A stretch of 64,000 nt of DNA from Candidatus Kapaibacterium sp. (GTDB lineage Bacteria; Bacteroidota; Ignavibacteria; Palsa-1295), in NCBI GenBank assembly GCA_017882165.1, contig JADGPZ010000001.1, positions 43,529 through 107,528 of the forward strand, in the 5' to 3' direction. The notes under the pieces are model-generated. The model worked only from the letters and a program-made list of their open reading frames with translations. It searched no databases and had not been told where the DNA came from. Below are positions 5,669-52,078 of this stretch, piece after piece. Numbering within the stretch: position 1 is the first letter of the stretch; the number at the start of each line of letters is the position of its first letter. Both the position numbers and the translations under genes were made by a program.

Positions 5669-5755
5669 GCCCCTGTTTCGGGGCGGACCCTACGGGTCAA
5701 CCACCCCCGTGGATGATCGGTCATCCACTTAACCCCCTCCTCCTTTAGGAGGGGG
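5669..5755. repeat. cluster of four tandem GC-rich stem-loops in adk-ABC intergenic (includes palindrome GTGGATGATCGGTCATCCAC at 5709..5728 and hairpin CCCCCTCCTCC-TTT-AGGAGGGGG at 5733..5755 overlapping the RBS-like AGGAGG)
   Basis: Inverted repeats read directly: GCCCCtgtttcGGGGC, GACCCtaCGGGTC, GTGGATGAtcggTCATCCAC, CCCCCTCCtcctttaGGAGGGGG. Confidence 0.7.
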
Positions 5756-13461: not shown

Positions 13462-13477
13462 CCTTCGGAAATAACCC

Positions 13478-13582
13478 GTCATTGCGAGGAGCGACGGAGG
13501 AGCGACGAAGCAATCTCCTGAGGAAAGCCTGGACTTCGTGCCAGGGATTGCTTCGTCGTGCTTCGCACTCCTCGCAATGACG
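13478..13582. repeat. MITE/REP-like long-hairpin repeat, copy 1 (~36 bp stem)
   Basis: GTCATTGCGAGGAGCGACG...loop...GATTGCTTCGTCGTGCTTCGCACTCCTCGCAATGAC; near-identical arms to copy at 16631..16736. Confidence 0.85.
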
Positions 13583-16602: not shown

Positions 16603-16630
16603 ATGGAGTGGTGATCTGTTTTTCAAGAAC

Positions 16631-16736
16631 GTCATTGCGAGGAGCGACGAAGGAGCGACGAAGCAATCCTTTGCGGGAAGTGCTCGGACTTCGTGGTGGG
16701 GATTGCTTCGTCGTGCTTCGCACTCCTCGCAATGAC
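16631..16736. repeat. MITE/REP-like long-hairpin repeat, copy 2
   Basis: Arms identical (1 mismatch) to 13478..13582; loop diverged. Confidence 0.85.
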
Positions 16737-27655: not shown

Positions 27656-28906
27656 ATGCCCGTCCCGCGCAAGCAACTCGAGCTTCCCGATATGCTCGAT
27701 CGGAAGAACTTCGACATCACGACGTTTTTTTCCGTTCTCCTTCTCGTCACCGCCGGCTTCCTCGCGATCTACAGCGCGACCTACGCGGCCAACATGAACA
27801 ACCGTTTCGGCTCACAGTTGTTGTTCGCCGGGATCGGCATCGCTGGCATGATCGTCATGGCGATGCTGCCGGTTCGCTGGTTTCAGGCCATCGCGTATCC
27901 ACTCTATGGAATCAGCATCGCGCTTCTGATTTTTGTTGCCTTCCAGGGTAAGCTCGTCTATGGTCACCGCAGTTGGATTGCAATCGGCAGCTTCCAGTTT
28001 CAGCCGTCCGAAATCGCAAAGCTCGCGACCATCTTCACTATCGGCGCATTCCTGAACAAAGGCCGCGATTTGAGAGACATCAAGAACATCCTGATCGTCT
28101 GCGGACTGGTCCTGCTCCCCATCGCGCTCATCCTTAAAGAGCCCGATCCTGGCACGGCCGTTATCTTTGCGGGCGTGATGGTTGTGCTTCTGCTCTGGTC
28201 CGGCGTCGATCTCTTTCTCCTCGCGGCGGTCGTCATTCCTGTACTTGTCGCCGTGCTATCACTCTTCGGACAGACGCCGACGATTGTTTCCGTGCTCGCG
28301 GGCGGCATCATCTTCTTCTTTGTCTTCCGGCGCAATCTTGTCCTGACGGTACTCGCCTTCGGAGTTGTGATAGCGATTGCCTTCTCCACGAATTTCATCT
28401 ACGAGCATCTACATCAGTTCCAACGCAATCGCATACAGGTGTTGCTCGATCCAGAACTCGATCCGCTCGGCGCGGGATACAATGTCATTCAGACGCGCAT
28501 GGCGATTGGCTCCGGCGGACTGTTAGGCAAAGGGTATCTGCGCGGCACTCAGACGCAACTCCGCTACGTACCGAAGCAGTGGACCGACTTCATCATCAGC
28601 GTGCCGGCGGAGGAATTCGGATTTGCGGGCGCGGTGGTGATCCTGATGCTCTACCTCTTCGTGATCTTCCGAGGCGTCGCGATTGCATCCAGTGTGCGAA
28701 GTATTTTCTCCAGCGTCGTCGCGATGGGTATCGCCGGCATCTGGTTCTTGCACGTGACCGTCAACATCGGCATGGCGCTCGGACTCATGCCCGTCATCGG
28801 TATCCCGCTGCCGTTCATGTCCTACGGCGGCTCCGCGCTGCTGACCAATCTCCTCATGGCCGGCATCCTGATGAATCTCTACCGCAACCGGAAGGTGCTA
28901 TTTTAA
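27656..28906 (+). CDS. rodA: FtsW/RodA/SpoVE family peptidoglycan glycosyltransferase (likely RodA)
   Basis: 10 TM segments and SEDS family conserved blocks (FQPSEIAKL, PDPGTA, RMAIGSGGLLGKG, DFI). Confidence 0.88.
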   Translation: MPVPRKQLELPDMLDRKNFDITTFFSVLLLVTAGFLAIYSATYAANMNNRFGSQLLFAGIGIAGMIVMAMLPVRWFQAIAYPLYGISIALLIFVAFQGKLVYGHRSWIAIGSFQFQPSEIAKLATIFTIGAFLNKGRDLRDIKNILIVCGLVLLPIALILKEPDPGTAVIFAGVMVVLLLWSGVDLFLLAAVVIPVLVAVLSLFGQTPTIVSVLAGGIIFFFVFRRNLVLTVLAFGVVIAIAFSTNFIYEHLHQFQRNRIQVLLDPELDPLGAGYNVIQTRMAIGSGGLLGKGYLRGTQTQLRYVPKQWTDFIISVPAEEFGFAGAVVILMLYLFVIFRGVAIASSVRSIFSSVVAMGIAGIWFLHVTVNIGMALGLMPVIGIPLPFMSYGGSALLTNLLMAGILMNLYRNRKVLF

Positions 28907-28914
28907 CCGCGAGG

Positions 28915-30963
28915 TTATTCGAACATAGAGACTTTCGCAAATCGCCGTTCTCCGCTCTCGGACTGAAACACGACGAAATACACTCCTGCCGGAAGCGGCC
29001 CCGTGATGTAGTTGGCGATTCCAGCTTGTGCTTGTGAAGAATAGAAGCACCGGCCATCCGAGCGATAGACATAAACGCTTCCCCGCTCCGAAGGCGGAGT
29101 GATGGTGATACGTCCGCGATTGGCATACGCTTTGAGCGGTTCTTCGGAATGCATTGGCCAGGGTTGAACCCCAGCGGAAGCTGCGCTCTTCAAAACAACA
29201 ACGGTTCCATCGTCACATCCTATAGCGACGTTGCCAGTGACGGCATTTAGTGCGGCTGAAGTGATCTTCTCACCTGCATAGTATATCGAGTCTACTATTT
29301 TCCCAGTGTAGCAATCGAAGATTCTTACGATTGAGTCCGTTAGCGGAGGAATTGCCACGTTCCTATCTCCTGGCATGAGTACCATTCCATACAGCCATGG
29401 GTTGCCCGAAACAGTCGCCACTGTCAAGCTGTCATTGTCAAGATTATGAATCTCAAATTGATATGGTGCAGCGCGGCCAAAAACGATTCTCCTGTCATCG
29501 GACGTAAATTCAGCCGACAACAAAAAGCCCGTATAAGGAATGGTCTTCATTCTCTGATGAGTCAACCGATCCCAAATTACAAAATCACTTCCCTCGGGAA
29601 CCCCAATCATTTCACCGGAATGAGAATAACACGCGAAAGTAGCAGCATGGGCGATATCGTAGCGGTGAATGATCTCTAAGCTCTTGGCGCTCCATTCGAA
29701 CATTTCTCCAGATTCCGAAGTCGTTACAAAGGAAGTGTCATCCGGGGAGAATGTTGCAGACCAGATGTTGCCGGTATGACCAAATAACACCTGCGCCGAG
29801 TCTGAGGCTTTCGACCAAAATCTCAAAGTATCGCTGTTTGCGGAGACGATAAAGGAAGCGTCGCGGGAAACCGAGAGGCACGATTGAACGCTATCGCAGG
29901 TGAGCAGCCTCTTTCTGATCCCAGATTGCGCTTCCCACACCATGATGGATTGATCGCGAGAAGAGCTTACGAGCCAATTCCCATCAGGAGAAAATGCAAT
30001 ATTGCGTATAGTCCAATTGTGTGAATTCAGTGACCCAAGGTAAGTCCGCTGCAAGATCGAGTAAAGCGAAACGTCGCTTCCACCCGTGACAACGATTGTG
30101 TCAATGCCAATAAACGAAAGGAGCGTTGCGCCCATCGGAGTTTGAATCAGTGCCACAGAGGAATCCGACGGCTTCATTAATTGGATTCCGCCAATGATGG
30201 CTGCTGCTATAATCTGTCTGCCGGGACTATAGGCAATAGCATTATTATCAGCCTCGGTAGAGAGAGGCCACTGACACGCCACAGTACCCGATGTATCCAG
30301 TACGAACAGGCCATGATCTTCAACGTAAATCTGATCTGATCTCAATGGAGAAAATCCGAGAGCTGACGGAGGATTTAAGAATTGCGCATACCGATGAATG
30401 ATGTGATGAGATGCAACGTCAATGAGTTCAACGCTTCGATTTATCCCGGTGAGAAGAGATCGGCCGTCAGGGCTGAAGCGAACTGGACCCTGCACATTCG
30501 ACCATGTGCCAACCTCTGCGGCATTTCCTCTGTCAAAAAGGTGCAAGATCCAATCATCCGTGATGTAAGCGATGAGGTTGCCGTTAGGAGTTGCATCCAG
30601 AGACAGCACTGTGTTGTTGGCCCAATTGACCACTTGGGCATAGGTGTTCTTGAACGGGTTCCAAGAAACGATCCCTTGACCTCCTGCAAGCAGTTCCGAG
30701 TCGCTTTCGAGAAAAGCCGAACACTTCCCAAGCCCGACAAGCCCATAACGATTTCGCTGCGCCCGCTCACCAGATTTGAGGGACCAATAGCCTCCTTCGC
30801 CATTCAAACTTGCAGTGAAGACACTCTGATCGCGTTCCGATGCGGAAATGCACGTAACAATATCACTCGGCCCAGAGACGCGAGACCACAGAACGTCCCA
30901 GCCGCTCTGAGCGGAGGCGACATCCGCCAAGAATAGTGAAATTATGGCAAGCAGTATCTTCAA
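28915..30963 (-). CDS. WD40/beta-propeller repeat protein with T9SS C-terminal sorting domain
   Basis: Signal peptide; many SxDG/SPDG blade repeats; C-terminal VYVYRSDGRCFYS...GVYFVVFQSESGERRFAKV CTD; visibly lower GC than flanks. Confidence 0.72.
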   Translation of the reverse strand: MKILLAIISLFLADVASAQSGWDVLWSRVSGPSDIVTCISASERDQSVFTASLNGEGGYWSLKSGERAQRNRYGLVGLGKCSAFLESDSELLAGGQGIVSWNPFKNTYAQVVNWANNTVLSLDATPNGNLIAYITDDWILHLFDRGNAAEVGTWSNVQGPVRFSPDGRSLLTGINRSVELIDVASHHIIHRYAQFLNPPSALGFSPLRSDQIYVEDHGLFVLDTSGTVACQWPLSTEADNNAIAYSPGRQIIAAAIIGGIQLMKPSDSSVALIQTPMGATLLSFIGIDTIVVTGGSDVSLYSILQRTYLGSLNSHNWTIRNIAFSPDGNWLVSSSRDQSIMVWEAQSGIRKRLLTCDSVQSCLSVSRDASFIVSANSDTLRFWSKASDSAQVLFGHTGNIWSATFSPDDTSFVTTSESGEMFEWSAKSLEIIHRYDIAHAATFACYSHSGEMIGVPEGSDFVIWDRLTHQRMKTIPYTGFLLSAEFTSDDRRIVFGRAAPYQFEIHNLDNDSLTVATVSGNPWLYGMVLMPGDRNVAIPPLTDSIVRIFDCYTGKIVDSIYYAGEKITSAALNAVTGNVAIGCDDGTVVVLKSAASAGVQPWPMHSEEPLKAYANRGRITITPPSERGSVYVYRSDGRCFYSSQAQAGIANYITGPLPAGVYFVVFQSESGERRFAKVSMFE

Positions 30964-31033
30964 TTCAGTGCTTGATGCAAGCGATTAAGCAATACCGCCC
31001 TACTCGTGTAGAGAGATGCGTTTGAAATTCAAT

Positions 31034-36395: not shown

Positions 36396-36614
36396 ATGCT
36401 CCCCTCTATCGAAGCCATCGTCGAAAAAGACGGACGAATTCGTCCCCTCGAACGCGTGAATGTGCGTGAGGGTACGCATGCAATTGTGACGTTCCTATCG
36501 GAGCCGAATGAATTGGTTCGCAACGACACGGCTCTGCTGAGCGAAGCGGCGCTCTCCGATTGGAACAGACCGGAAGAAGACGAAGCATGGGCCTATTTGC
36601 AAAAGGGTCGATAG
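36396..36614 (+). CDS. type II antitoxin, DUF104-like N-terminus
   Basis: IEAIVEKDGRIRPLERVNVREGTHAIV matches DUF104 antitoxin pattern; overlaps downstream toxin gene. Confidence 0.5.
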   Translation: MLPSIEAIVEKDGRIRPLERVNVREGTHAIVTFLSEPNELVRNDTALLSEAALSDWNRPEEDEAWAYLQKGR

Positions 36615-36925
36615 TTCTCGTCCCTTATCCTTTTAGCGATCTTTCTGGAACAAAGCTGAGGCCCGCGCTGGTCTTGGCTGAAGTGTCGTTCAATGATTAT
36701 GTGTTTTGCCAAATAACCACAAAACCGTATGGAGCGAAGCATGTTGTCCCGATTAAACCTGAGCTAAACCCACAATCGGGGCTTCACGCGTTAAGCTACC
36801 TGAGGCCGGAAAAAGTCTTTACTGGCAACGAAAATCTCATTCTCGAACAGATTGGAGTTTTGGAAGAACGTACTGTTGAAGAAGTTGTGGACTCCATTAC
36901 TGCAATTCTTCGCTCTGGGCGATGA
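36587..36925 (+). CDS. MazF/PemK-family endoribonuclease toxin
   Basis: GSIVLVPYPFSDLSGTKLRPALVL hallmark N-terminus; stop overlaps lpxB ATG (ATGA). Confidence 0.72.
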   Translation: MGLFAKGSIVLVPYPFSDLSGTKLRPALVLAEVSFNDYVFCQITTKPYGAKHVVPIKPELNPQSGLHALSYLRPEKVFTGNENLILEQIGVLEERTVEEVVDSITAILRSGR

Positions 36926-40418: not shown

Positions 40419-41387
40419 ATGACTCGCGATCTCGATAACGCATTTGGCGTGCGGCCGCTCGTGCTCGATGGCGCATTAGGCACGGTGATGGAAGGCCGCG
40501 GCGTGAACACCAGCGGCAAAAGCTGGACCGCGCGCGGACTCGTCTCGCATCCCGATCTCATCTATCGCGTCCACAAGGATTACCTATGGGAGGGCGCGGA
40601 CATTCTCACAGCGAACACATTCCGCACCAATCCACGCGCACTCAAAGATACTGGACTGGACGCTGAAGCGCTGACCAAGAAGGCTGTTCGTATCGCGCGC
40701 AAAGCACGGCGTGAGAAGAATCCGCTCATCCGCGTGGCTGGCTCAATCGCGCCGGTCGAGGATTGCTTCTCACCCGAGTTGGTGCCGGCGAGCGATGCCG
40801 CACTTGTTGAAGAGCACCGCGTCATGGCACGCTGGCTCGATGAGGCCAGAGTCGATATTATTCTGATCGAGACGATGAACACGCTGCGCGAAGCACTCTG
40901 CGCGCTTGCTGCCGCGAAGGCGGAATCGGAAAAATATGTTTGGGTTTCGCTCGTGCCGAAGGACGGCGAGACGATGCTGGACGGCACTCCGCTCGATTAT
41001 GCGGTCAAACGTTTGGCTGAGGGCGGAGCACATTTGGTTGCGCTGAACTGCGCGCCACTCACGACAATCATGGATGCGATGCCGGTATTTTCGAAAGCCG
41101 CGAGACGCGCGATGGTCTGGTTCGGGTGTTATCCGAACGCATCCGAAAAGCTACCGGATGGAACGTGGGACCTCTATGCTTCCAGCAACAAGCAGATCAT
41201 GGAAGGTTGCCTCGCATGGATGCAGGAAGGCGCAGTGATGGTCGGAAGTTGCTGCGGCACGACACCGAGCACGACCGGGCGCATTCGCACGAAGCGCGAT
41301 CTCTTCTACCTCAACATGGAGCACATCGACCTGGGGGGCGACGAGGATGATCGAGCATCCATGGAAGACTCCGAATTGCCGTTTTGA
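40419..41387 (+). CDS. homocysteine S-methyltransferase family protein
   Basis: LDGALGT, ANTF, zinc-binding Cys residues (ALNC..., GSCCGTTP). Confidence 0.82.
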   Translation: MTRDLDNAFGVRPLVLDGALGTVMEGRGVNTSGKSWTARGLVSHPDLIYRVHKDYLWEGADILTANTFRTNPRALKDTGLDAEALTKKAVRIARKARREKNPLIRVAGSIAPVEDCFSPELVPASDAALVEEHRVMARWLDEARVDIILIETMNTLREALCALAAAKAESEKYVWVSLVPKDGETMLDGTPLDYAVKRLAEGGAHLVALNCAPLTTIMDAMPVFSKAARRAMVWFGCYPNASEKLPDGTWDLYASSNKQIMEGCLAWMQEGAVMVGSCCGTTPSTTGRIRTKRDLFYLNMEHIDLGGDEDDRASMEDSELPF

Positions 41388-41492
41388 AGTGCTATGGTGC
41401 TGAAGTGCTTCTTACACTTTGCGTGAGATCTGCTTTAGACCCTTAACGCCTTAGCTAAGCACTTTAGCACTTTTAGCACTTCATTACTTCTC

Positions 41493-41681
41493 TCAGGCCG
41501 CAGGCTCTTCCTTCGTCTTCATCTCCTGGACTTCCTTGCGGATTTCCTGCGCTTTTCGCTTGATTTCATTCATCGCCTTGCGAATGCGCGTGCCAGCGGA
41601 CTTATTGCTCTTATCGTAAAACTTCTCGAAATCCTTCTCGAAGCTGACGAGCAGGTCCTGTAATTCCTTAAAACGGTTCAT
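41493..41681 (-). CDS. histone H1-like small DNA-binding protein (Bacteroidota type)
   Basis: 62 aa, Lys/Glu-rich helical; FEKDFEKFYDKSNKSAGTRIRKAMNEIKRKAQEIR matches the Bacteroidota histone-H1-like family. Confidence 0.6.
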   Translation of the reverse strand: MNRFKELQDLLVSFEKDFEKFYDKSNKSAGTRIRKAMNEIKRKAQEIRKEVQEMKTKEEPAA

Positions 41682-41879
41682 CTTATTGCCTCCTATTTGT
41701 CGTATTTATGCACAAAACTATCTGATGGAAACCCTGCCGGGGCCGGCCGAATTCCCAGTGGATGAGCGATCATCCACCTCAGAACTGTATTCTAATCGCT
41801 AAAATACGAGATTCTTAGAGCAAAAGCAAGTGCCCGGGCCGAAAAATCGCGAATTTCGTGGGATTGATTGCAATCGGAA

Positions 41880-41917
41880 GGGCCGAGCGCGGATGATCGA
41901 TCACCCACGCTCGGCCC
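41880..41917. repeat. compound hairpin: 10-bp perfect stem (GGGCCGAGCG/CGCTCGGCCC) enclosing a GGATGATCGATCACCCAC palindrome
   Basis: Read directly; related palindrome GTGGATGAGCGATCATCCAC at 41758..41777. Confidence 0.75.
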
Positions 41918-41970
41918 TGATTTTGAACTCTCGCTCGTGCGTAGTTCGCGCTACGCAGCTCGCGCGATGA

Positions 41971-44154
41971 TTAGTACTTCCCTACTAATACTTCGATCAC
42001 GCCAGTGCCGGATCCAGAGAAATTCCCGAGTGACTTGCCGAGTGCCTGGCCGATCTGGAGTTTGCTCAGGTCAGCCTTCATCGCATGACCCGGTGTCGAA
42101 GAAGTCACCAGCAGATCGCCGGCGAAAATCGGGCCGTTCTCGGAAGTCACCTTCGTCGGAATGACACCGATGATGCCGAGCGGCACCTTTGCGGAGTGGT
42201 CTCCATCCATCATCACGTTTGTGAGGATCACTCCGGGTTTCGTCGCATAGACACCGGCAACGAGTCGCGAGTATGGCTCGGAGGACTTCTCGACAAGGCG
42301 ATCGCCAGCGCGCGAAATCACGAGCACATCACCTGCCGCGTAACTCGCTCGGTCGCCCGGCACATCGAATTCTTCCGCCACGTCGGCACCGCCGGTCTGC
42401 GTGCCGCCGTTGAAGAAGCCTTTGCCGGTCCGGTCGATCCGCGCGACGTGCGCGCCCGCCGACTCGAAGATCGCGCAGTTGTTACCATTAACGGTCGAGA
42501 TCGTCGAGCCGAGCATGTTTACGATCAATGCGTTGCACGTAGTGCCAACGGATGCTGCTTCAGCCAGAACGCCAGTACCACCCTGCCAGCCGAGACCATG
42601 CACACCATTGCCGGTGCCATCGGCCTCACCGTAGATCGCGTCTCCGTTTCCATTGGTGACACCCTCGATCGCAATCCCGCCCGTCTCCGTTCGGCCATAG
42701 ACGCCGATGCCGTTGCCCATACTGTGTCCATAAACGCCGACGCCATTTCCGTTGGCACCGTGGTTGATGCCACACACACCAGCGGCCAAGAGGGATGGAG
42801 TGGCAGAGGTCACTTCACCCTGGACTCCAACCGCATTGGCAGTAGAGCTGGTCTGCCCAAGAATCGCTGGGTTCGTGCTCGTCGTCGAGCTTGCAACCGC
42901 TTTGATGGCATTGCCCAACCCGGGATTATTGACTTCGACCGCGTTCGCGGTCGAGGCGGAGTTGGTGACCTCGAACAGGCCGGCACGAGCTGTTAGGGCA
43001 CCGGCACCAGTAGTGCCATAAATTCCCACACCACTATTAGACACAGCCCCCTCGACTCCATAACCGGAATTGGTCAATCCCGCGACCCCACGGGCCGTGG
43101 AAGAGCCTCCAAAGACGCCAGAGTTCGTCAGGACTCCGACGCCACTTCCATCGGATGTAAGGCCAAGCACACCGATGCCGGTCGCGCTCGTTGTGCTCCC
43201 GTTCACCCCCGCCATCGCCGCCGCGCTTGCCCCGCCGCTGATGGCCGCGCCAGCCCCAGAATTTGTGATGTCAAATAGTGTTGAACTCGATGACATCGTG
43301 TTCGAGTATGGCAACGAAAAGACGCTCGGCGTGACCCACGTCGCGCCACCCGACCCATTGGCCGCAAGCACCTGACCAATGGTCGCGGAACCCGATCCCA
43401 CCACGGCATTTGTCACAGCGCCGGCTGCGATCTTGGCCGTCGTGACAGCGCCAGCCGCGAGCTTCGCGTTCGTGACAGCATTATCCGCCAAACTAATCGT
43501 CGCCGTCGGTCCCGTCGGTCCGACAATGCTGATCGTCCCATCGATATTCTGGACGCCGAGGATTCCCGTTCCACTGCCGCCGGTGGAGCTGATGGTGACC
43601 GTGTATCCGTTGCTGGAAATTGTGGTCCCGCCAGAGCCGGCAAGAGTCAGGCTACCCGAGAGACCATTAATCGACCGCACGACGCCGGTTGCAAGTGGGG
43701 CAAGGGCGAGTGCGGTCCCAGCCAGGCGCGAGGAGTCCGCAACACGGCTGGTCCACGCTGTCGCGGCGGCGCCGAGTTTAGAACGTGGCGTCAACTCCGC
43801 GCCGCCTTCGATCGCGACGCCGAGGAAATAATCCGCTGCGGGACGCACGACACCGCCGACATCGCCGGCGTCAAACATCGGCAGCGGATTCGCATGGTCC
43901 GCGCCGAGTGTCGCGTTGAATATTCCATTAGTGAAGGTAACGGACTGCGTCTCCGTGTGGAGTGCGGTGCCGCCGGTTGCGGCAGCATAGATCGCAAGCG
44001 TCACGCTGTGCGGTCCCGAGACCGCAGTGCCGCTGCTCGTCACCGATCCCTGATAAGAGATGACTTGCTGTGCGTTAGATGATGATGATTGAAGTGCCTG
44101 GAGTACGAAGGCTCCAAGAACGAACACGAATGCGCGTAGCTGATGTGTTTTCAT
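41971..44154 (-). CDS. large secreted glycine-rich repeat protein (beta-helix/tail-fibre-like repeats, distinct C-terminal domain, no T9SS CTD)
   Basis: Signal peptide; dozens of G-x-G-V/I-x-G repeats (GVGVYGHSMGNGIGVYG...), conserved C-terminal ~150 aa. Confidence 0.65.
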   Translation of the reverse strand: MKTHQLRAFVFVLGAFVLQALQSSSSNAQQVISYQGSVTSSGTAVSGPHSVTLAIYAAATGGTALHTETQSVTFTNGIFNATLGADHANPLPMFDAGDVGGVVRPAADYFLGVAIEGGAELTPRSKLGAAATAWTSRVADSSRLAGTALALAPLATGVVRSINGLSGSLTLAGSGGTTISSNGYTVTISSTGGSGTGILGVQNIDGTISIVGPTGPTATISLADNAVTNAKLAAGAVTTAKIAAGAVTNAVVGSGSATIGQVLAANGSGGATWVTPSVFSLPYSNTMSSSSTLFDITNSGAGAAISGGASAAAMAGVNGSTTSATGIGVLGLTSDGSGVGVLTNSGVFGGSSTARGVAGLTNSGYGVEGAVSNSGVGIYGTTGAGALTARAGLFEVTNSASTANAVEVNNPGLGNAIKAVASSTTSTNPAILGQTSSTANAVGVQGEVTSATPSLLAAGVCGINHGANGNGVGVYGHSMGNGIGVYGRTETGGIAIEGVTNGNGDAIYGEADGTGNGVHGLGWQGGTGVLAEAASVGTTCNALIVNMLGSTISTVNGNNCAIFESAGAHVARIDRTGKGFFNGGTQTGGADVAEEFDVPGDRASYAAGDVLVISRAGDRLVEKSSEPYSRLVAGVYATKPGVILTNVMMDGDHSAKVPLGIIGVIPTKVTSENGPIFAGDLLVTSSTPGHAMKADLSKLQIGQALGKSLGNFSGSGTGVIEVLVGKY

Positions 44155-44571
44155 GGCAAACCGATTAAGTTGTTACCAAATGGTGGAGTACAAATATAGT
44201 CAATCCCGACGCGTTATGCAAGTCCCGCCTCGCGCGGCGGAGATTCCTGGGATGGCGAGGCGCTTACTCTGCGGCTGCTGTTGGAACGGCAGATCATCGA
44301 CACCTCGTTCTGGGATGACGATGAAGACGATTGCACTACTGCGGAGAGGCAAAAAAGTGCCGAAAACCGTGGATGATCGTGAGATCACCCATGATCTCAC
44401 ATCACCCACGAAAGCCCCCAAGCGCCGGAAGGCGAAGGCGGGTATACACAGTCCCGAGCTGACGGCCAAGCTGCGGAAGGCGCTGGAAGATATCGAGCAG
44501 GATCGCGTCCATACCGTCGATCCGAACAATCACCGCGACGGGTTCAAGGAGTTGCTCAAAAAGAAGAAGCC

Positions 44572-45054
44572 CTAAGATCTCGTGTGCGATCCCCGGTGTA
44601 GTTGGGGATTATCGACGTTCGCCCCCGGCACTTCGCTCGCGCGCTTCCGCTTTATCACGTCAATAATTTGACAGCACAGTTTATCCTGCTCGGGTGATAA
44701 GTCCGCCTGGTCGGCTTTGGAGAATCCCATCAGGAAGTAAATCTCGCCGTGGATGTGAGGATAGTAAACGATCCGGTATCCATCGCGCGCGCCCACATTC
44801 TGTCGTGGCAAGTCGATTTTGTGCGCGCCGCACGCATTTCGAAGATTCGCGCCACGTCTCGGCACGGAGATGAATTGCAATCGCTTTTCGAGATCGAGAA
44901 ATCGCTCGATGAGTCGCGTGTCCTCTGCTTCGTATTCTAAGAATGTTTCGAGAAACGACTCGATGTAATAGGGCCGATACGCCAGCGCATAATCGCCGGC
45001 CCGCCGCGCCTTGAACGCCGCGACCGCTTCTTCGAACCGTGCCAGGAAACCCAT
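44572..45054 (-). CDS. HigB-2/Gp49-like toxin-domain protein (RelE/ParE superfamily), apparently orphan
   Basis: Core GARDGYRIVYYPHIHGEIYFLMGFSKADQADLSPEQ resembles HigB-2 (GGSRIIYYF...FYLLTIYGKNEMSDL). Confidence 0.4.
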   Translation of the reverse strand: MGFLARFEEAVAAFKARRAGDYALAYRPYYIESFLETFLEYEAEDTRLIERFLDLEKRLQFISVPRRGANLRNACGAHKIDLPRQNVGARDGYRIVYYPHIHGEIYFLMGFSKADQADLSPEQDKLCCQIIDVIKRKRASEVPGANVDNPQLHRGSHTRS

Positions 45055-45071
45055 AGGCTACAAAGATACGG

Positions 45072-45123
45072 CGTTCTCGCTCTTGCCTGCGCGAGCGCTC
45101 CGGATATTCTTAGGATGGCGAGG
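45072..45123. repeat. ~52-bp direct repeat R1 flanking the rhuM fragment
   Basis: CGTTCTCGCTCTTGCCTGCGCGAGCGCTCCGGATATTCTTAGGATGGCGAGG versus R2 at 45576..45631. Confidence 0.7.
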
Positions 45124-45215
45124 GGCTTGCGCTGCGTCTGATGTTTACTCCGTCGTGCGTTTCCGAGCGATTGCCCGCAAATGTCGTATATTTACATCGA
45201 TAGTAATAGGCACCC

Positions 45216-45575
45216 ATGACACAGAACGAAACCCCCGCAGACGGCCAGCCTTCAGGGCAGCTACTTATTTACGAAGACGGCGGACTGAACATCCAGGTGC
45301 GCCTCGATGGCGACACCGTGTGGCTGACGCAGCGGCTCATCGCGGAGCTGTATCAGGTATCGCTTCCGACCATCAGCGAGCACTTGACGAATATTTATGC
45401 GGAAGGCGAGCTTTTTCCAGAGCCAACTATTCGGAATTTCCGAATAGTTCAAATCGAAGGTGGCCGCAAGGTGGCCCGTGCCCTCGATCACTATAGTCTC
45501 GATGCCGTTCTCGCCGTTGGCTACCGAGTTCGCTCCGAGCATGGGACGAAGTTTCGCCAATGGGCGACCGCACGA
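45216..45575 (+). pseudogene. truncated rhuM-like (virulence RhuM/Fic-associated family) gene, N-terminal ~120 codons only
   Basis: LLIYEDGGLNIQVRLDGDTVWLTQRLIAELYQVSLPTISEHLTNIYAEGEL matches RhuM N-terminal domain; reading frame degenerates inside repeat R2. Confidence 0.55.
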
Positions 45576-45631
45576 CGCTCTCGCTCGTTCTTGTCTGCGC
45601 GAGCGAACCGGATATTCTTGGGATGGGGAGG
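45576..45631. repeat. ~56-bp direct repeat R2
   Basis: CGCTCTCGCTCGTTCTTGTCTGCGCGAGCGAACCGGATATTCTTGGGATGGGGAGG. Confidence 0.7.
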
Positions 45632-45647
45632 TATCTCAAGAGTCAGA

Positions 45648-46397
45648 TCAGTCAGATCCTGGCTTTTGTAGAATCAATCCTGAAAGTATTGACCCGTAAA
45701 GTCCATATTCTGCAAGCATTCTCACATGCTTGCCGCCAAGATCGGAATCGATTGCGCGCGATGCTTTCCGGACCAGTTTCTCAAGCTTCATCGCTTCGCA
45801 CGCTTTGATCGACACGTCCAGAACATGCATCATCGTCACCAATGAATGAATTGGATTCGGATCTGAACCGAGTTCCTCTGAGACGTTCCTCACTAAAATT
45901 GAAAACAGAGAATTCCCTTTGAACGTGATGTCCTCTGCCGACAACAATTCCGTGCATGCTCCATATTCGTGCTCGGCGGAATTAATGTTATTGACGAATT
46001 CAAATCGAACCCCCTCCTTACGCTCTTCGAGCCAATTACCACATGCACTCTCTACGCTTGTGAAGATGATTTCTGGCATGAGAAAATCTTGAAGGCGCTG
46101 TCTGCTCATATCGCCTAACAATCCGAAGCACCTCCTCATAGTAAGGTGCATGAAAAAATAGATGTACTCATACATCAGTTCGAGTTCTCGAAGTTGTCTG
46201 GCTTTGTCGTCCGTTTCGACGATCAAGGATCTTAGCTCCCGTTGGCAAGCTTGTGCGGCTACAAAAATCGCGAGCTCAATATTTTGAAGTGGCCGCAGCT
46301 TTCGACTTTCATGTCGTCCCTTTTGACGCGCCTCATGGAACGTCCTTTTGGTCTCCCGATCTTTCGGGCTTCCGTACAATCTCGATAGTATTCCCAT
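45648..46397 (-). CDS. hypothetical all-alpha protein, co-transcribed partner of the cyclase-like gene (low GC)
   Basis: 249-aa ORF 11 bp downstream of 46408..47178 on the same strand; no TM, no recognisable domain. Confidence 0.5.
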   Translation of the reverse strand: MGILSRLYGSPKDRETKRTFHEARQKGRHESRKLRPLQNIELAIFVAAQACQRELRSLIVETDDKARQLRELELMYEYIYFFMHLTMRRCFGLLGDMSRQRLQDFLMPEIIFTSVESACGNWLEERKEGVRFEFVNNINSAEHEYGACTELLSAEDITFKGNSLFSILVRNVSEELGSDPNPIHSLVTMMHVLDVSIKACEAMKLEKLVRKASRAIDSDLGGKHVRMLAEYGLYGSILSGLILQKPGSD

Positions 46398-46407
46398 CAG
46401 TCTCCCC

Positions 46408-47178
46408 TTAGGCTTTGCCAGTAATAGTGTCTGCGACCCTCATCTGCTGACTCATTTTAGACTGCATCCACATATACTTCGCCATGATTCCTGGGTCGCG
46501 AGATTCGAGGCCTTCCCTAACGACTTCCTGAAGCGCCACTTGGTATTCACCCCATTCTCCACCCTCGAAGACGTTAGGTAGCAACTTGAAATAATTGATG
46601 TAGTGAAGGCCATCCTCATCCACAGCAAGTACGTCTTCTAACCTAAGGCCCTCCATGAGTAAAATGCGTTCTCTTGCATCCTCTAGGAGGGAATGCACAC
46701 TCGGATGAATGACAATTCGTGGATAATTTGCAGCCTTCGATTCAAGTTGATATGCCTGGATTACCGCAGGGCCAAAAAGTACCGACTCCGTGTGGCGTGC
46801 TAAGCCAAATCCAATGCCTCCACGGCACGAAAGCCCAGCAAGCCTCATTAGCTGCACCGGAATCCAATAGATCGATTGAATACTCGCAAAAACCTCTGCG
46901 GGATCATCTGCGCGAATAGAAGCGACGATACTGTCCGAAAACTGAGTTACCACGAGGCTGGGTTCACCCCTGTATCCCTTTATTCTTCTAAACAATTTTT
47001 GACTTGGCTCTAAAAGCTTCGACACCTCAATTAGCGCATCTTCTATTGCGTCAATGCGTCCCTCGTTTTGCACACCATCGTCTCCAATCGTTGCATCGAT
47101 TGCGTGCTCAAACCCAAGTATGTCGATGAAGGCTACAACGCGATTTTCGAATGTCATGATTCTGGTATAACGCATCAT
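46408..47178 (-). CDS. minimal class III nucleotidyl cyclase-like protein (adenylyl/guanylyl-cyclase fold candidate)
   Basis: Motif order VVAFIDILGFEHA (metal Asp), FSDSIVAS (second Asp), RGGIGFGLARHTESVLFGPAVIQAYQLESKA, PRIVIHPSV; start ambiguous (47178 or 47157). Confidence 0.4.
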   Translation of the reverse strand: MMRYTRIMTFENRVVAFIDILGFEHAIDATIGDDGVQNEGRIDAIEDALIEVSKLLEPSQKLFRRIKGYRGEPSLVVTQFSDSIVASIRADDPAEVFASIQSIYWIPVQLMRLAGLSCRGGIGFGLARHTESVLFGPAVIQAYQLESKAANYPRIVIHPSVHSLLEDARERILLMEGLRLEDVLAVDEDGLHYINYFKLLPNVFEGGEWGEYQVALQEVVREGLESRDPGIMAKYMWMQSKMSQQMRVADTITGKA

Positions 47179-47339
47179 TCCATAAAATGATACCCTGCTG
47201 CACCGGCAACGAAGCCACACCTCACACGCCATGCAGGCTCTTCTCGTCATTGAGTTGCGGCGTGGGTTGCTGGTGGTGTGGGGTTCGGTTGGAACCGCTC
47301 TTGCGCAATCTTAATTATCGTGTATGGAGGCACCGAGTC

Positions 47340-47555
47340 ATGCACTTAACATTTTCCGATATAGTCGAAGGCATCCGCGAACTACCGCTTGGTGACAAGA
47401 CCGAGTTGCGGGAGTTGCTGGACCACGAACTGATCGCGGCACGCCGCACGGAGATCGACGCGAGCCACGCCGAGACGATGGCGGAGTGGGAGCGCGGCGA
47501 GCTAACGCCAACGTCCGATGTCAATGAGATCATGCGCCGGTTGAATGCGGCATGA
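47340..47555 (+). CDS. type II antitoxin (addiction-module component, helical)
   Basis: 72 aa, GGAGG 10 bp upstream, 4-nt ATGA overlap with RelE-like gene. Confidence 0.5.
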   Translation: MHLTFSDIVEGIRELPLGDKTELRELLDHELIAARRTEIDASHAETMAEWERGELTPTSDVNEIMRRLNAA

Positions 47556-47821
47556 TTCAGGTCGCTGAGGGTTCGTCGTTTCGAAGAGCGTACAAACGCT
47601 TCATCAAGTCTCATCCTGATCTTGAGGAGAAGCTCCGCGAGCAGTTAGGCCGCTTCATCCAACACCCACACGATCCTCGGCTCCAGACTCATTCCCTCTC
47701 TGGCAAGCTCGATGGCCGGTGGGCCTTCAGCATCACGAAGAAGTATCGAGTCGTGTTCTATTTCGAGCGAGACGATCTGGCCTTCCTCGAAGACATTGGT
47801 ACCCACGACGACGTTTACTAA
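47552..47821 (+). CDS. RelE/StbE/YafQ-family mRNA interferase toxin
   Basis: HSLSGKLDGRWAFSITKKYRVVFYFERDDLAFLEDIGTHDDVY typical RelE C-terminal core. Confidence 0.72.
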   Translation: MIQVAEGSSFRRAYKRFIKSHPDLEEKLREQLGRFIQHPHDPRLQTHSLSGKLDGRWAFSITKKYRVVFYFERDDLAFLEDIGTHDDVY

Positions 47822-48095
47822 TCTTACCTCCCGCAAAGACATCCTTCGGCACGGGCAGGGAGTCCCGGATGTTCTCGGGACGAATTCCTGAGATTTTTGA
47901 AATTTTCGGGAACGCGGGTTTTGGGGGTGTTCATGAACTCCAAACAAAAAAGAGAGATCGAATTATTTTGACTTTTCTTTCCCGCGGAATGAGTTTGATG
48001 AATTTCAAACTCAATTAGTGAAATTCTTGGCTACCTGAAAGCGATCCTTCGTCCGCCGCAGCGGACTCAGGATGACAGTTTGTTTATAGAAAGTT

Positions 48096-49295
48096 ATGAC
48101 AGAAGCTTATATTCTCTCCGCTTGCCGGACACCGTTTGGGAAATATGGTGGCGCACTGAAAGATGTCCGTCCGGACGACATGGCTGCCTTAGTGATGAAG
48201 GAGGCCGTTCGACGCGCCGGAATCGATGCGGCTGAAATCGACGACGTGATGTTCGGCTGCGCCAATCAGGCCGGGGAGGACAACCGCAACGTGGCGCGGA
48301 TGGGTGCTCTGCTGGCGGGTTTCCCGGAGCGCGTGCCGGCCGTGACGCTGAACCGGCTGTGCGGCTCGTCGATGGACGCGGTGATTCAGGCGGCGCGGGC
48401 GATCCGCGCGGGCGAGGCGGAGATCGTCGTGGCCGGTGGGGTCGAGAGCATGACGCGCGCGCCCTACTCGCTGCCGAAGAATGTGTCGGGTGCGGCGCTT
48501 TTCGGGAATATCCAGGCGTATGATACGGCGCTCGGCTGGCGCTATCCGAATCCGAAGATGGAGGCGATGTTCCCGCTGGAATCGATGGGCGAGACCGCCG
48601 AGAATGTCGCCGAGCAGTGGAAGGTCTCGCGTGAGGATCAGGATGCGTTTGCCTACGAGTCGCACCAGCGCGCGATCGCGGCACAGAAGCGCGGCGACTA
48701 TGCGGAGGAGATCGTGCCGGTCGAGATCGCGTCGAAGAAGGGGACGACCGTCGTCGCGCAGGACGAGCAGCCGCGCGCCGATACAACCATTGAGAAGCTG
48801 GCGACGCTGAAGGCCGCCTTCCGCAAAGGCGGGTCGGTGACGGCGGGGAATTCGAGCAGCTTGAACGATGGCGCGAGCGCGGTCGTCGTCGTGAGTGGAT
48901 CAGTTCTGAAACGACTCGGCGTCGAACCGCTCGGACGGTATGTATCGAGTGGTGTCGAAGGACTTTCGCCGCGCTGCATGGGCGTGGGACCCATATACGC
49001 GACACGGAGGGCCTTGGCACTGGCGAAGTTGGATGTGAAGGACATCGATCTTTGGGAGTTGAACGAGGCATTCGCGGCTCAGAGCTTGCCGGTGATCCGT
49101 GAGTTGGGAATCGATCCGGCGCGAGTGAATCCGAACGGTGGCGCGATTGCGATCGGGCATCCGCTTGGCGCAAGCGGTGGTCGGTTGGTCGGCGCGTTGC
49201 TTTATGAGATGCGTCGTAAGAAGCTGAAGCGCGGCGTGGCGACGATGTGCATCGGTGTGGGACAAGGAATCGCGGCCATTTTCGAGCGAGATTAG
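48096..49295 (+). CDS. acetyl-CoA C-acyltransferase (thiolase)
   Basis: Active-site Cys LNRLCGSSM, C-terminal NPNGGAIAIGHPLGASG and CIGVGQG thiolase signatures. Confidence 0.92.
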   Translation: MTEAYILSACRTPFGKYGGALKDVRPDDMAALVMKEAVRRAGIDAAEIDDVMFGCANQAGEDNRNVARMGALLAGFPERVPAVTLNRLCGSSMDAVIQAARAIRAGEAEIVVAGGVESMTRAPYSLPKNVSGAALFGNIQAYDTALGWRYPNPKMEAMFPLESMGETAENVAEQWKVSREDQDAFAYESHQRAIAAQKRGDYAEEIVPVEIASKKGTTVVAQDEQPRADTTIEKLATLKAAFRKGGSVTAGNSSSLNDGASAVVVVSGSVLKRLGVEPLGRYVSSGVEGLSPRCMGVGPIYATRRALALAKLDVKDIDLWELNEAFAAQSLPVIRELGIDPARVNPNGGAIAIGHPLGASGGRLVGALLYEMRRKKLKRGVATMCIGVGQGIAAIFERD

Positions 49296-52030: not shown

Positions 52031-52078
52031 TTACCGAGAATAATTCGTAGAGAGAAGGATGAATTCATCCTTATAAGG

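Follow-up and report, generated by a model that had tools for sequence, protein, structure and literature searches.

Among described systems, one of the closest to the genes analysed here is the PanA-PanT pair of the Burkholderia prophage phi52237 (YP_863932.1/YP_293707.1), whose toxin, PanT(Bur.phage), Kurata et al. 2022 (PMC8832971) regarded as a putative nucleotide cyclase (HHpred, 97%). PanA neutralises the toxicity that PanT(Bur.phage) shows in Escherichia coli, and the two proteins co-purify; transcription is the process that the toxin inhibits most strongly, followed by translation, and the toxin provokes RelA-dependent accumulation of guanosine tetraphosphate (ppGpp) without depletion of ATP (PMC8832971). 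Here we analysed a stretch of 64,000 nucleotides (nt) from Candidatus Kapaibacterium sp. (contig JADGPZ010000001.1, positions 43,529 to 107,528; hereafter the window, whose own coordinates are used throughout), in which a homologue of this toxin, gene A, is followed by a second gene, gene B, in a low-GC operon inside a small island at 44230..47843. Together with its other residents, namely a HigB-2-like gene, a rhuM fragment and a RelE-type toxin-antitoxin (TA) pair, the island probably represents a variable slot on the chromosome of a Kapabacteria-like member of the Bacteroidota that was filled stepwise with small selfish or defence-type modules.

Gene A is a full-length homologue of the phage toxin. 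BLASTP aligned it to YP_293707.1 at 32% identity over 205 amino acids (aa; E 6e-16), and a profile of the gene A family matched the same protein by hhalign (99.8%, E 2e-30, 240 columns), with the FIDILGF, FSD, RGG and FGPA..AY..ES..PR motifs in common. Both proteins have a cyclase-like fold with no Pfam match, and each gene lies within a variable region and has another RelE-type TA system next to it. These sequence comparisons place gene A in the PanT(Bur.phage) toxin family, of which one representative has been validated. The two loci nevertheless differ in their partners and setting. In phi52237, the toxin gene (gp8) starts 3 nt downstream of the gene for a DUF4065 protein (PF13274 confirmed); its locus lies between the genes for integrase and portal and is adjacent to a further TA pair. 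The island has no open reading frame (ORF) matching the Panacea domain (DUF4065/PF13274); the gene linked to gene A lies downstream rather than upstream, encodes an orphan helical protein and resides on a Bacteroidota chromosome rather than in a P2-like prophage. Gene A also lacks the toxin's N-terminal extension of ~45 residues.

The slot was defined by comparison with two relatives, found through a large protein database that places the source among Kapabacteria-like Bacteroidota, and these two are the only informative ones: L198, which shares the right flank, and L199 (GCA_030706365.1), which is syntenic. The L198 thiolase is 96% identical to that of the window, and nucleotide identity is ~97% from 47844 onwards; bases 1-242 of L198, left of the common junction, are unrelated to the window. 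L199 has a 90% identical thiolase and ~78% nucleotide identity, and it keeps both the orthologue of the glycine-rich (Gly-rich) protein on the left (blastp, 79.7% identity over 729 aa) and the thiolase-folB-folK-dNK order on the right. Its slot holds three genes of its own (238, 210 and 235 aa; L199:7336-9728) that are dissimilar to the window island, have no Pfam or PADLOC match and may be different defence-type cargo. Because the same gene set is missing from this place in both L198 and L199, the region 44230..47843 is an accessory island that varies among relatives. More distant genomes could not be used: among species-representative genomes the best match to the thiolase query was 66% identical, not syntenic and of no use for an indel test, and four further thiolase relatives (L200-L203, 86-88% identity) have another gene order around the thiolase gene and are uninformative on the slot. 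As separate observations on the cargo of the relatives, the 210-aa product of L199 has a weak caspase- or legumain-like match (Peptidase_C13, E 0.015) with a His...Cys pattern (SHGD...GTC), and L198:1-242 begins a minus-strand ORF (MDRDFNTVVADAMALDPVSRGALADKIIVSLADQPKYFDEWLDE...) that to our eye resembles the N terminus of an addiction-module antitoxin, the 44-residue fragment having no Pfam match.

The slot has the conserved promoter of the Gly-rich protein gene on one side and conserved DNA upstream of the thiolase gene on the other. On the right, a three-way alignment of the window, L198 and L199 showed similarity beginning at the identical base in all three, which sets the edge at 47843/47844; homology to both relatives resumes at 47844 with CTTCGGCACGGGCA. 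On the left, the beginning of the Gly-rich gene, the -7 box of that gene and the motif ATGCAAGYCCC are common to the window and L199, and similarity stops at ~44229, giving an edge at ~44230. A terminator-like hairpin with a T-run (47873-47893, plus strand) lies directly right of the junction and is conserved in both relatives, so the slot is bracketed by a promoter on its left and by this hairpin on its right. The original prediction, made from the letters of the window, had placed an accessory island between the Gly-rich and thiolase genes. That claim survives the comparison with relatives, as does the island's gene order, which had been given correctly; its extent (44155..48095) had to be redrawn, with the right edge 250 nt further left. 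It had also reported no integrase or tRNA at the edges, in agreement with our finding no tRNA in the whole window and no island ORF with a match to an integrase or transposase family.

Base composition divided the island into two parts. The overall GC content of 44155..48095 is 51.8%, compared to 56.0% for the whole window and 60-64% for the immediate flanks. The prediction that this region is AT-richer than its ~60% GC flanks holds for an atypical core of 1.7 kb (45600..47330; GC 48.2%, GC at third codon positions (GC3) ~0.49, z ~-3) and for the intergenic stretch 47822..48095 (45.3%), and not for the remainder, which is host-like (55.8% for 44155..45600 and 56.3% for 47330..47830). Windows of 1730 nt with GC <=0.49 account for 0.6% of positions, with the minimum (0.481) starting at 45651, and the only other stretch with such windows at GC <=0.50 is at 28.85-29.5 kb. 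Using 48 genes of the window as a codon reference (GC3 0.669, s.d. 0.061), gene A (GC3 0.476, codon-usage z -3.5) and gene B (GC 0.468, GC3 0.500, codon-usage z -3.1), both with GC of 0.47-0.48, were strongly atypical. The other four genes (HigB-2-like, rhuM fragment, antitoxin and RelE) were host-like, with GC3 of 0.63-0.74 and z of -0.7 to +1.1 on both GC3 and codon usage. The sliding-window GC and codon-usage check suggested along with the prediction thus singles out genes A and B (z ~-3), and the A-B operon is the only compositionally foreign part of the island. Outside the island, the second compositional outlier of the window is a 682-aa gene (28915..30963, minus strand, within 28850-31000; GC 0.50, GC3 0.51), and the lowest GC3 (0.434) belongs to a 121-aa ORF (36560..36925, plus strand) directly upstream of, and overlapping, a gene of normal composition.

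The modules of the island are separated by a direct repeat of ~60 nt present in three copies (Table 1). Copies 2 and 3 are 88% identical over 48 nt (45076-45123 versus 45584-45631), with a 22-nt extension at 77%, and a search of the window with a 22-mer of the repeat gave three matches against 0.00 expected, that in copy 1 (44239-44260) having 3 mismatches. Copies 1 and 2 each lie just upstream, in the minus-strand sense, of a TAnnTTTG box before a minus-strand start codon; all copies are internal or at the left slot edge, and none is at the right junction. The third copy coincides with the end of the rhuM similarity. The fragment covers positions 6-116 of 174 in the PDC-S05 profile, 6-119 of 346 in the full-length model and 2-51 of 252 in PF13310, which is the first (N-terminal) third of the full-length models, and its frame continues into repeat copy 3 from ~45572. 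Compared with the RhuM family and the PADLOC candidate PDC-S05, to which its residues 12-120 match strongly, the fragment lacks most of the PF13310 domain (positions 52-252) and has repeat copy 3 in its place. The predicted truncation of rhuM between direct repeats was therefore borne out, by the 88% identity of the copies and by a RhuM match that stops at residue 120. From their position at module boundaries we infer that the repeats are recombination scars, possibly att-like. Two other identities were considered for them: an RNA or structured element was rejected on their folding (z -0.3 to -0.9) and the lack of an Rfam match (nothing above chance in 41300..48400), and an integron attC site was dropped for want of both core sites and a significant hairpin.

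Of the alternatives to stepwise filling, the one that survives best would have the whole 3.6 kb arrive at once, as what is left of one decayed mobile element (such as an integrative element or a prophage end that lost its integrase). One pair of sharp junctions common to both relatives fits such an origin, TA genes and rhuM are typical mobile-element cargo, and the att-like direct repeats fit as well. However, the composition is bimodal (z ~-3 for genes A and B versus ~0 elsewhere), three repeat copies split the island into modules, and no integrase, transposase or tRNA was found; we consider a single origin unlikely.

Next, we examined the predicted structure of gene A. The ORF reaches 47250 and homologues start at the methionine at 47157. 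The protein has no Pfam, NCBIfam or PADLOC match; it matches phrog_23933 (E 2e-29) and 81 hypothetical proteins. Its AlphaFold (AF2) model has high confidence (predicted local distance difference test (pLDDT) 94.6), and in a Foldseek search of the PDB the top 50 matches were all class III adenylyl, guanylyl or uridylyl cyclases (E from 9e-7, TM score up to 0.70 on the target); a search of BFVD added only giant-virus cyclase-domain proteins. In an alignment of 53 family members, F10, D12, I13, L14 and G15 (FIDILGF), S74 and D75 (FSDS), G113 (RGG), A135 and E139 (AY.LES), P146, R147, D182 and W230 are invariant, all 14 being present in gene A, and R112 is nearly so. Sequence likeness to cyclases is below threshold: adenylyl cyclases came out on top of a PDB profile search at sub-significant scores (profile E 0.13 or worse), and PF00211 was matched by 1 of the 53 members (E 0.044) and not by gene A itself. 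In the profile alignment with adenylyl cyclase 5mbg, FIDILGF pairs with FSDILAF, FSDS with IGDC and FGPA..AY.LES with LGDAVNVAARLEA, and the invariant D12 and D75 fall on the metal-binding Asp residues of FSDI and IGD. The model and alignments together indicate a class III cyclase-homology fold with an invariant two-Asp metal site.

Gene A departs from established cyclases elsewhere in the active site. The described class III nucleotidyl cyclases (PF00211; Spirulina CyaC 1wc3, Mycobacterium avium Ma1120 4wp9 and M. tuberculosis Rv1900c 1ybt) have the same fold (Foldseek E 9e-7 to 1e-4), and their two metal-binding Asp residues and Arg-Gly motif align with those of gene A, but gene A lacks the transition-state Asn/Arg and the adenine-specifying Lys and carries an extra C-terminal helical region of ~70 residues. 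In the alignment with 5mbg, which is a sub-significant sequence alignment and not a superposition of coordinates, the VNVAAR segment with the transition-state pair stands opposite veAYqL, and the base-specifying Lys, 4 residues before the second Asp, stands opposite a Thr (VTQFSD). The original description of genes A and B as a cyclase-like pair is consequently half right: gene A has the cyclase fold and gene B is predicted to be all-helical and not cyclase-like.

To place gene A among its homologues, we searched 1.84 billion representative proteins with the family profile and found 16,567 clusters at 50% identity with E <=1e-3, including 4,029 with E <=1e-30, mostly of 240-290 aa. Members of the family occur in Bacteroidota, Proteobacteria and Firmicutes, on plasmids (76, every time annotated as hypothetical) and in phages, the last including P2-like Burkholderia prophages identified by tblastn against annotated phages, and the family has no Pfam, NCBIfam or PADLOC model. 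We collected 111 family loci (90 non-redundant) and called their ORFs. An all-against-all BLASTP of the 111 loci clustered only near-duplicates and revealed no conserved partner in the 90 non-redundant loci, and jackhmmer located PanA only at the Burkholderia prophage loci. In 50 of 57 loci the upstream gene shares the strand of the family member, and 27 of 75 loci have a neighbour on that strand no more than 50 nt away (18 upstream, 11 downstream), leaving 48 with none tightly linked. Neighbours include AbiH (3), DNA methyltransferases, AbiLi, AriA, RhuM/PDC-S05 (2), Abi_2, AbiJ, a type I specificity subunit, a CAP12/Pycsar TIR protein (1) and phage structural genes, a distribution typical of a mobile toxin or defence effector that pairs promiscuously. 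Upstream of the homologues nearest to gene A (54-55% identity; L001:1770-3161, L002:7294-8711, also L003-L005 and L118), at a distance of ~22-66 nt, lies a conserved gene for a 213-aa protein without a significant family match, which makes a second and different candidate partner for the family; this protein was also considered as a form of gene B and is unrelated to it. Gp49/HigB-like genes were seen near these loci.

A non-catalytic role for gene A comes second among the alternatives and is also unlikely. Here the protein would be structural or regulatory, as AdvA is in Acinetobacter, and A-B would be ordinary cargo with neither TA nor defence function. AdvA contains a cyclase-homology-like domain that lacks cyclase residues and activity (PMC13060281), gene A is without the Asn/Arg pair, and the majority of family loci (48 of 75) have no tightly linked neighbour. 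Yet the metal-binding Asp pair and the RGG motif are fully or almost fully conserved in the aligned gene A family, while AdvA keeps only 2 of 8 active-site residues (PMC13060281); one family member is experimentally toxic (PMC8832971); and members are carried by prophages and plasmids and lie next to defence genes. Direct identity of gene A with AdvA was rejected, AdvA being a different, membrane-anchored family.

The least probable of the three alternatives, none of which we favour, is a Pycsar/CBASS (cyclic oligonucleotide-based antiphage signalling system)-type defence with gene A as a true cyclase making a second messenger on infection and gene B as the messenger-activated effector: the metal dyad of gene A is conserved in a cyclase fold, the Pycsar uridylate cyclase 8jsz is among the structural matches of gene A, and the family sits among defence genes with one CAP12/Pycsar TIR neighbour, but PADLOC reports no PycC, effector or other cyclase-system match for A or B, searches with gene B gave neither a family nor a structure match, no partner is conserved over the 90 loci, the tested homologue is toxic alone and neutralised by direct antitoxin binding (PMC8832971), and the transition-state Asn/Arg and base-specifying Lys are replaced. 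Set against Pycsar proper (the pyrimidine cyclase PycC plus an effector activated by cyclic nucleotide monophosphates), the locus is alike in having a cyclase-fold protein in defence-type neighbourhoods that matches 8jsz, and unlike in having no PycC model match, no recognisable effector and no conserved partner.

Gene B starts 10 nt past the stop codon of gene A, behind GGGGAG, and has the same composition; given this spacing and composition, the two genes were very probably acquired together and are very probably expressed together. Among 5.8 billion proteins gene B has only three homologues (61, 40 and 42% identity) in unrelated contexts, and it has no match in Pfam, NCBIfam, PADLOC, PHROG or the PDB (profile searches included) and none in viral contigs. 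One homologue lies in a polysaccharide cluster behind genes of 134 and 146 aa (locus L006) and another behind a 66-aa gene. The 134-aa and 146-aa genes were considered as a split gene A and rejected by BLASTP, and a 274-aa neighbour of the homologue at locus L008, considered as a gene A relative, proved unrelated. Judged from the operon structure, gene B may be the neutraliser of gene A, a role to which we give somewhat less than an even chance; the alternatives are a co-effector or an unrelated passenger.

Stepwise filling of a variable slot, which remains our preferred explanation, could work as follows. The slot would be a permissive site between promoter and terminator in which small addictive modules accumulate and decay. 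Its older, compositionally ameliorated residents would be the orphan HigB-2-like gene, the 5' third of a rhuM gene and the RelE/YafQ-type TA pair, and the most recent arrival would be the low-GC A-B operon, with the ~60-nt repeats marking the recombination events of successive insertions or deletions; acquisition in the absence of a resident integrase would thereby be accounted for. Like the tested PanT, to which it is homologous, free gene A protein would arrest growth, chiefly via transcription and then translation, probably by an Asp- and nucleotide-dependent reaction other than canonical synthesis of cyclic AMP or cyclic GMP. Gene B, translationally coupled 10 nt downstream, would be its cognate neutraliser, making a toxin-first TA pair, or another kind of functional partner, and any anti-phage benefit would come through abortive infection.

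Several observations weigh against this explanation or parts of it. L198 and L199 both carry other cargo and neither offers an empty site, so an insertion here is indistinguishable from a replacement there. The att-like role of the repeats is conjecture: the copies fold no better than shuffled sequence (z -0.3 for copy 2), and the 60-nt repeat has no exact match in viral contigs. With only 32% identity to the tested toxin and the 45-residue N-terminal extension missing, toxicity of gene A is not guaranteed. None of the three gene B homologues lies beside a gene A homologue, and in the arrangement behind the 66-aa gene, B itself could be the toxin. The protein encoded by gene A is acidic (isoelectric point (pI) 4.9) and that of gene B near neutral, which is not the usual charge pattern of toxin and antitoxin, and the gene B model (pLDDT 49) gives no usable structure or complex prediction. 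Finally, no phage-defence phenotype is known for any part of the island.

A bolder proposal, which we regard as rather unlikely, is that A-B is an undescribed two-gene TA or abortive-infection module in which a cyclase-fold enzyme, its metal site retained and the canonical transition-state residues lost, would make or consume an unusual nucleotide species blocking transcription and would be restrained by a protein of a new all-helical family with only three other known members; the PanT-like family would then be a major, so far unrecognised class of toxin or defence effector that swaps partners freely. The island as such is routine, a small chromosomal hot spot collecting TA-type genes as in many bacteria, and is a new instance of a familiar kind; gene A adds a member to a known, barely studied toxin family, and the A-B pairing is a new candidate that is as yet unproven. 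Through gene A, the 'putative nucleotide cyclase' toxin, of which one prophage protein has been tested, is seen to be part of a very large family, which is without description in curated protein-family or defence databases and whose neighbours change from locus to locus. What may surprise specialists is not the island but possibly the size and missing annotation of the PanT(Bur.phage)-like family. The A-B operon offers a convenient test case for the reaction of the toxin, for neutralisation without a Panacea domain and for protection against phage.

Table 1 Features of the island and its flanks, in window coordinates.
Feature	Position	Strand	Basis or remarks
Variable slot (island proper)	44230..47843	none	blastn and alignments with L198 and L199
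Gene A, 249-aa protein with predicted class III cyclase fold	46408..47157	-	AF2, Foldseek, BLASTP, hhalign, phrog_23933
Gene B, 249-aa predicted all-helical orphan, second gene of low-GC operon	45648..46397	-	AF2 pLDDT 49 (low-confidence model)
Direct repeat copy 1, degenerate, at left slot edge	44213-44290 (best-conserved part 44239-44290)	+	60% identity to reference copy
Direct repeat copy 2, reference copy, between HigB-2-like gene start and rhuM fragment	45068..45131	+	Repeat search and alignment
Direct repeat copy 3, exactly at rhuM truncation point	45572..45631	+	Repeat search and alignment
rhuM fragment	45216..45671	+	RhuM/PDC-S05-like over residues 12-120 only, E 1.8e-43
160-aa HigB-2/RelE-like protein	44572..45054	-	PF06296 E 2.3e-3, 18.6 bits; phrog_5869 E 3e-6
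86-aa basic ORF, doubtful gene	44315..44575 (longer reading starts 44153)	+	GC at codon positions 1/2/3 = 0.58/0.38/0.70, coding-like; pI 10.3
71-aa acidic antitoxin-like gene	47340..47555	+	Sequence; pI 4.7; GC3 0.736, host-like
89-aa RelE/YafQ-family mRNA-interferase toxin	47552..47821	+	TIGR02385, PF15738, phrog_1213 (RelE-like toxin)
18-bp-stem hairpin, GGATGA...TCAYCC type	44368..44410	none	Folding: + strand -25.5 kcal/mol, z -7.5; - strand -32.1 kcal/mol, z -6.2
Left flank, 727-aa Gly-rich protein gene	41971..44154	-	80% aa identity in L199; no Pfam match
Conserved AT-rich region upstream of thiolase gene, outside island	47844..48095	+	97% identical to L198, ~71% to L199
Right flank, thiolase gene	48096..49295	+	PF00108/PF02803; then folB, folK, dNK as in L198 and L199

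The remaining genes of the island are of more familiar types. The toxin of the RelE-type pair passes the curated cut-offs of both TIGR02385 (29.5 bits versus 27.9) and PF15738 (30.3 versus 30), and the antitoxin-like gene overlaps it by 4 nt (ATGA). The antitoxin-like protein itself has a weak VapB15-type match (E 1e-3, 19 bits against a cut-off of 80) and no curated antitoxin family above cut-off. In comparison with the described RelBE and DinJ-YafQ type II systems, the small acidic upstream gene, the 4-nt overlap and an 89-aa toxin above the RelE/StbE and YafQ cut-offs are shared, and the antitoxin differs in standing outside the curated families. We take 47340..47821 to encode a bona fide RelE-type TA pair on these sequence features, as had been predicted (a RelB/RelE-like pair).

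The HigB-2-like gene was likewise predicted, as an orphan toxin gene. Its orphan status stands, since no family-matching ORF lies downstream on the minus strand, only the convergent 86-aa basic ORF (4-nt overlap), which itself has no family match. Its likeness to HigB-2 proved weak: the PF06296 score is under the 27-bit cut-off, and residues 59-132 align to Vibrio cholerae HigB-2 chains in the PDB (5ja8, 8a0x; E 5e-3). Relative to that protein, the window protein has an extra N-terminal region of ~55 aa and no downstream HigA-2-like antitoxin. The gene is host-like in composition (GC3 0.646) and is preceded by a Bacteroidota-type -7 box, TATCTTTG, at 45068.

PADLOC found no complete defence system in the island, only the truncated PDC-S05 candidate, together with weak sub-threshold matches to PD-Lambda-2_A (E 7e-3) and PDC-S02 (E 0.05). 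The content is TA-type, and the label of a 'defence' island used in the original prediction is not upheld.

A GGATGA-type palindromic element had also been reported as inserted in a small ORF of the island. The hairpin is real, with an 18-bp stem, and a U-rich tract comes after it on the minus strand, where it could terminate the HigB-2-like gene. Its interpretation as an insertion into a gene is not supported; the same motif recurs between genes in this genome and in relatives. The palindrome GGATGA(N)TCAYCC is present in the window at 5711-5726, 41760-41775, 41891-41906, 44371-44407 and 52057-52070 (8 matches of GGATGA...TCAYCC with both strands counted, versus 0.86 expected) and in the relatives at L198:4455-4468, L199:4924-4939 and L199:15990-16003, kept at corresponding places; the island copy is expanded into the 18-bp hairpin. 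The motif thus appears to be a recurrent, lineage-conserved intergenic element and not evidently a mobile insertion, and it may be an operator or terminator core. One GGATGA palindrome lies ~80 nt upstream of the start of a 62-aa Hc1-type histone H1-like protein (PF07432, E 1e-22; 41493..41681, minus strand), just left of the Gly-rich gene.

A different palindromic repeat of ~105 nt (GTCATTGCGAGGAG...CTCCTCGCAATGAC) was observed at 13477-13582 and 16629-16736, where it forms very stable hairpins of -69 and -74 kcal/mol (z -9 and -10). One copy is present in L199 at a non-homologous position (L199:2086-2190), and the repeat looks like an element of the miniature inverted-repeat transposable (MITE) or repetitive extragenic palindromic (REP) type.

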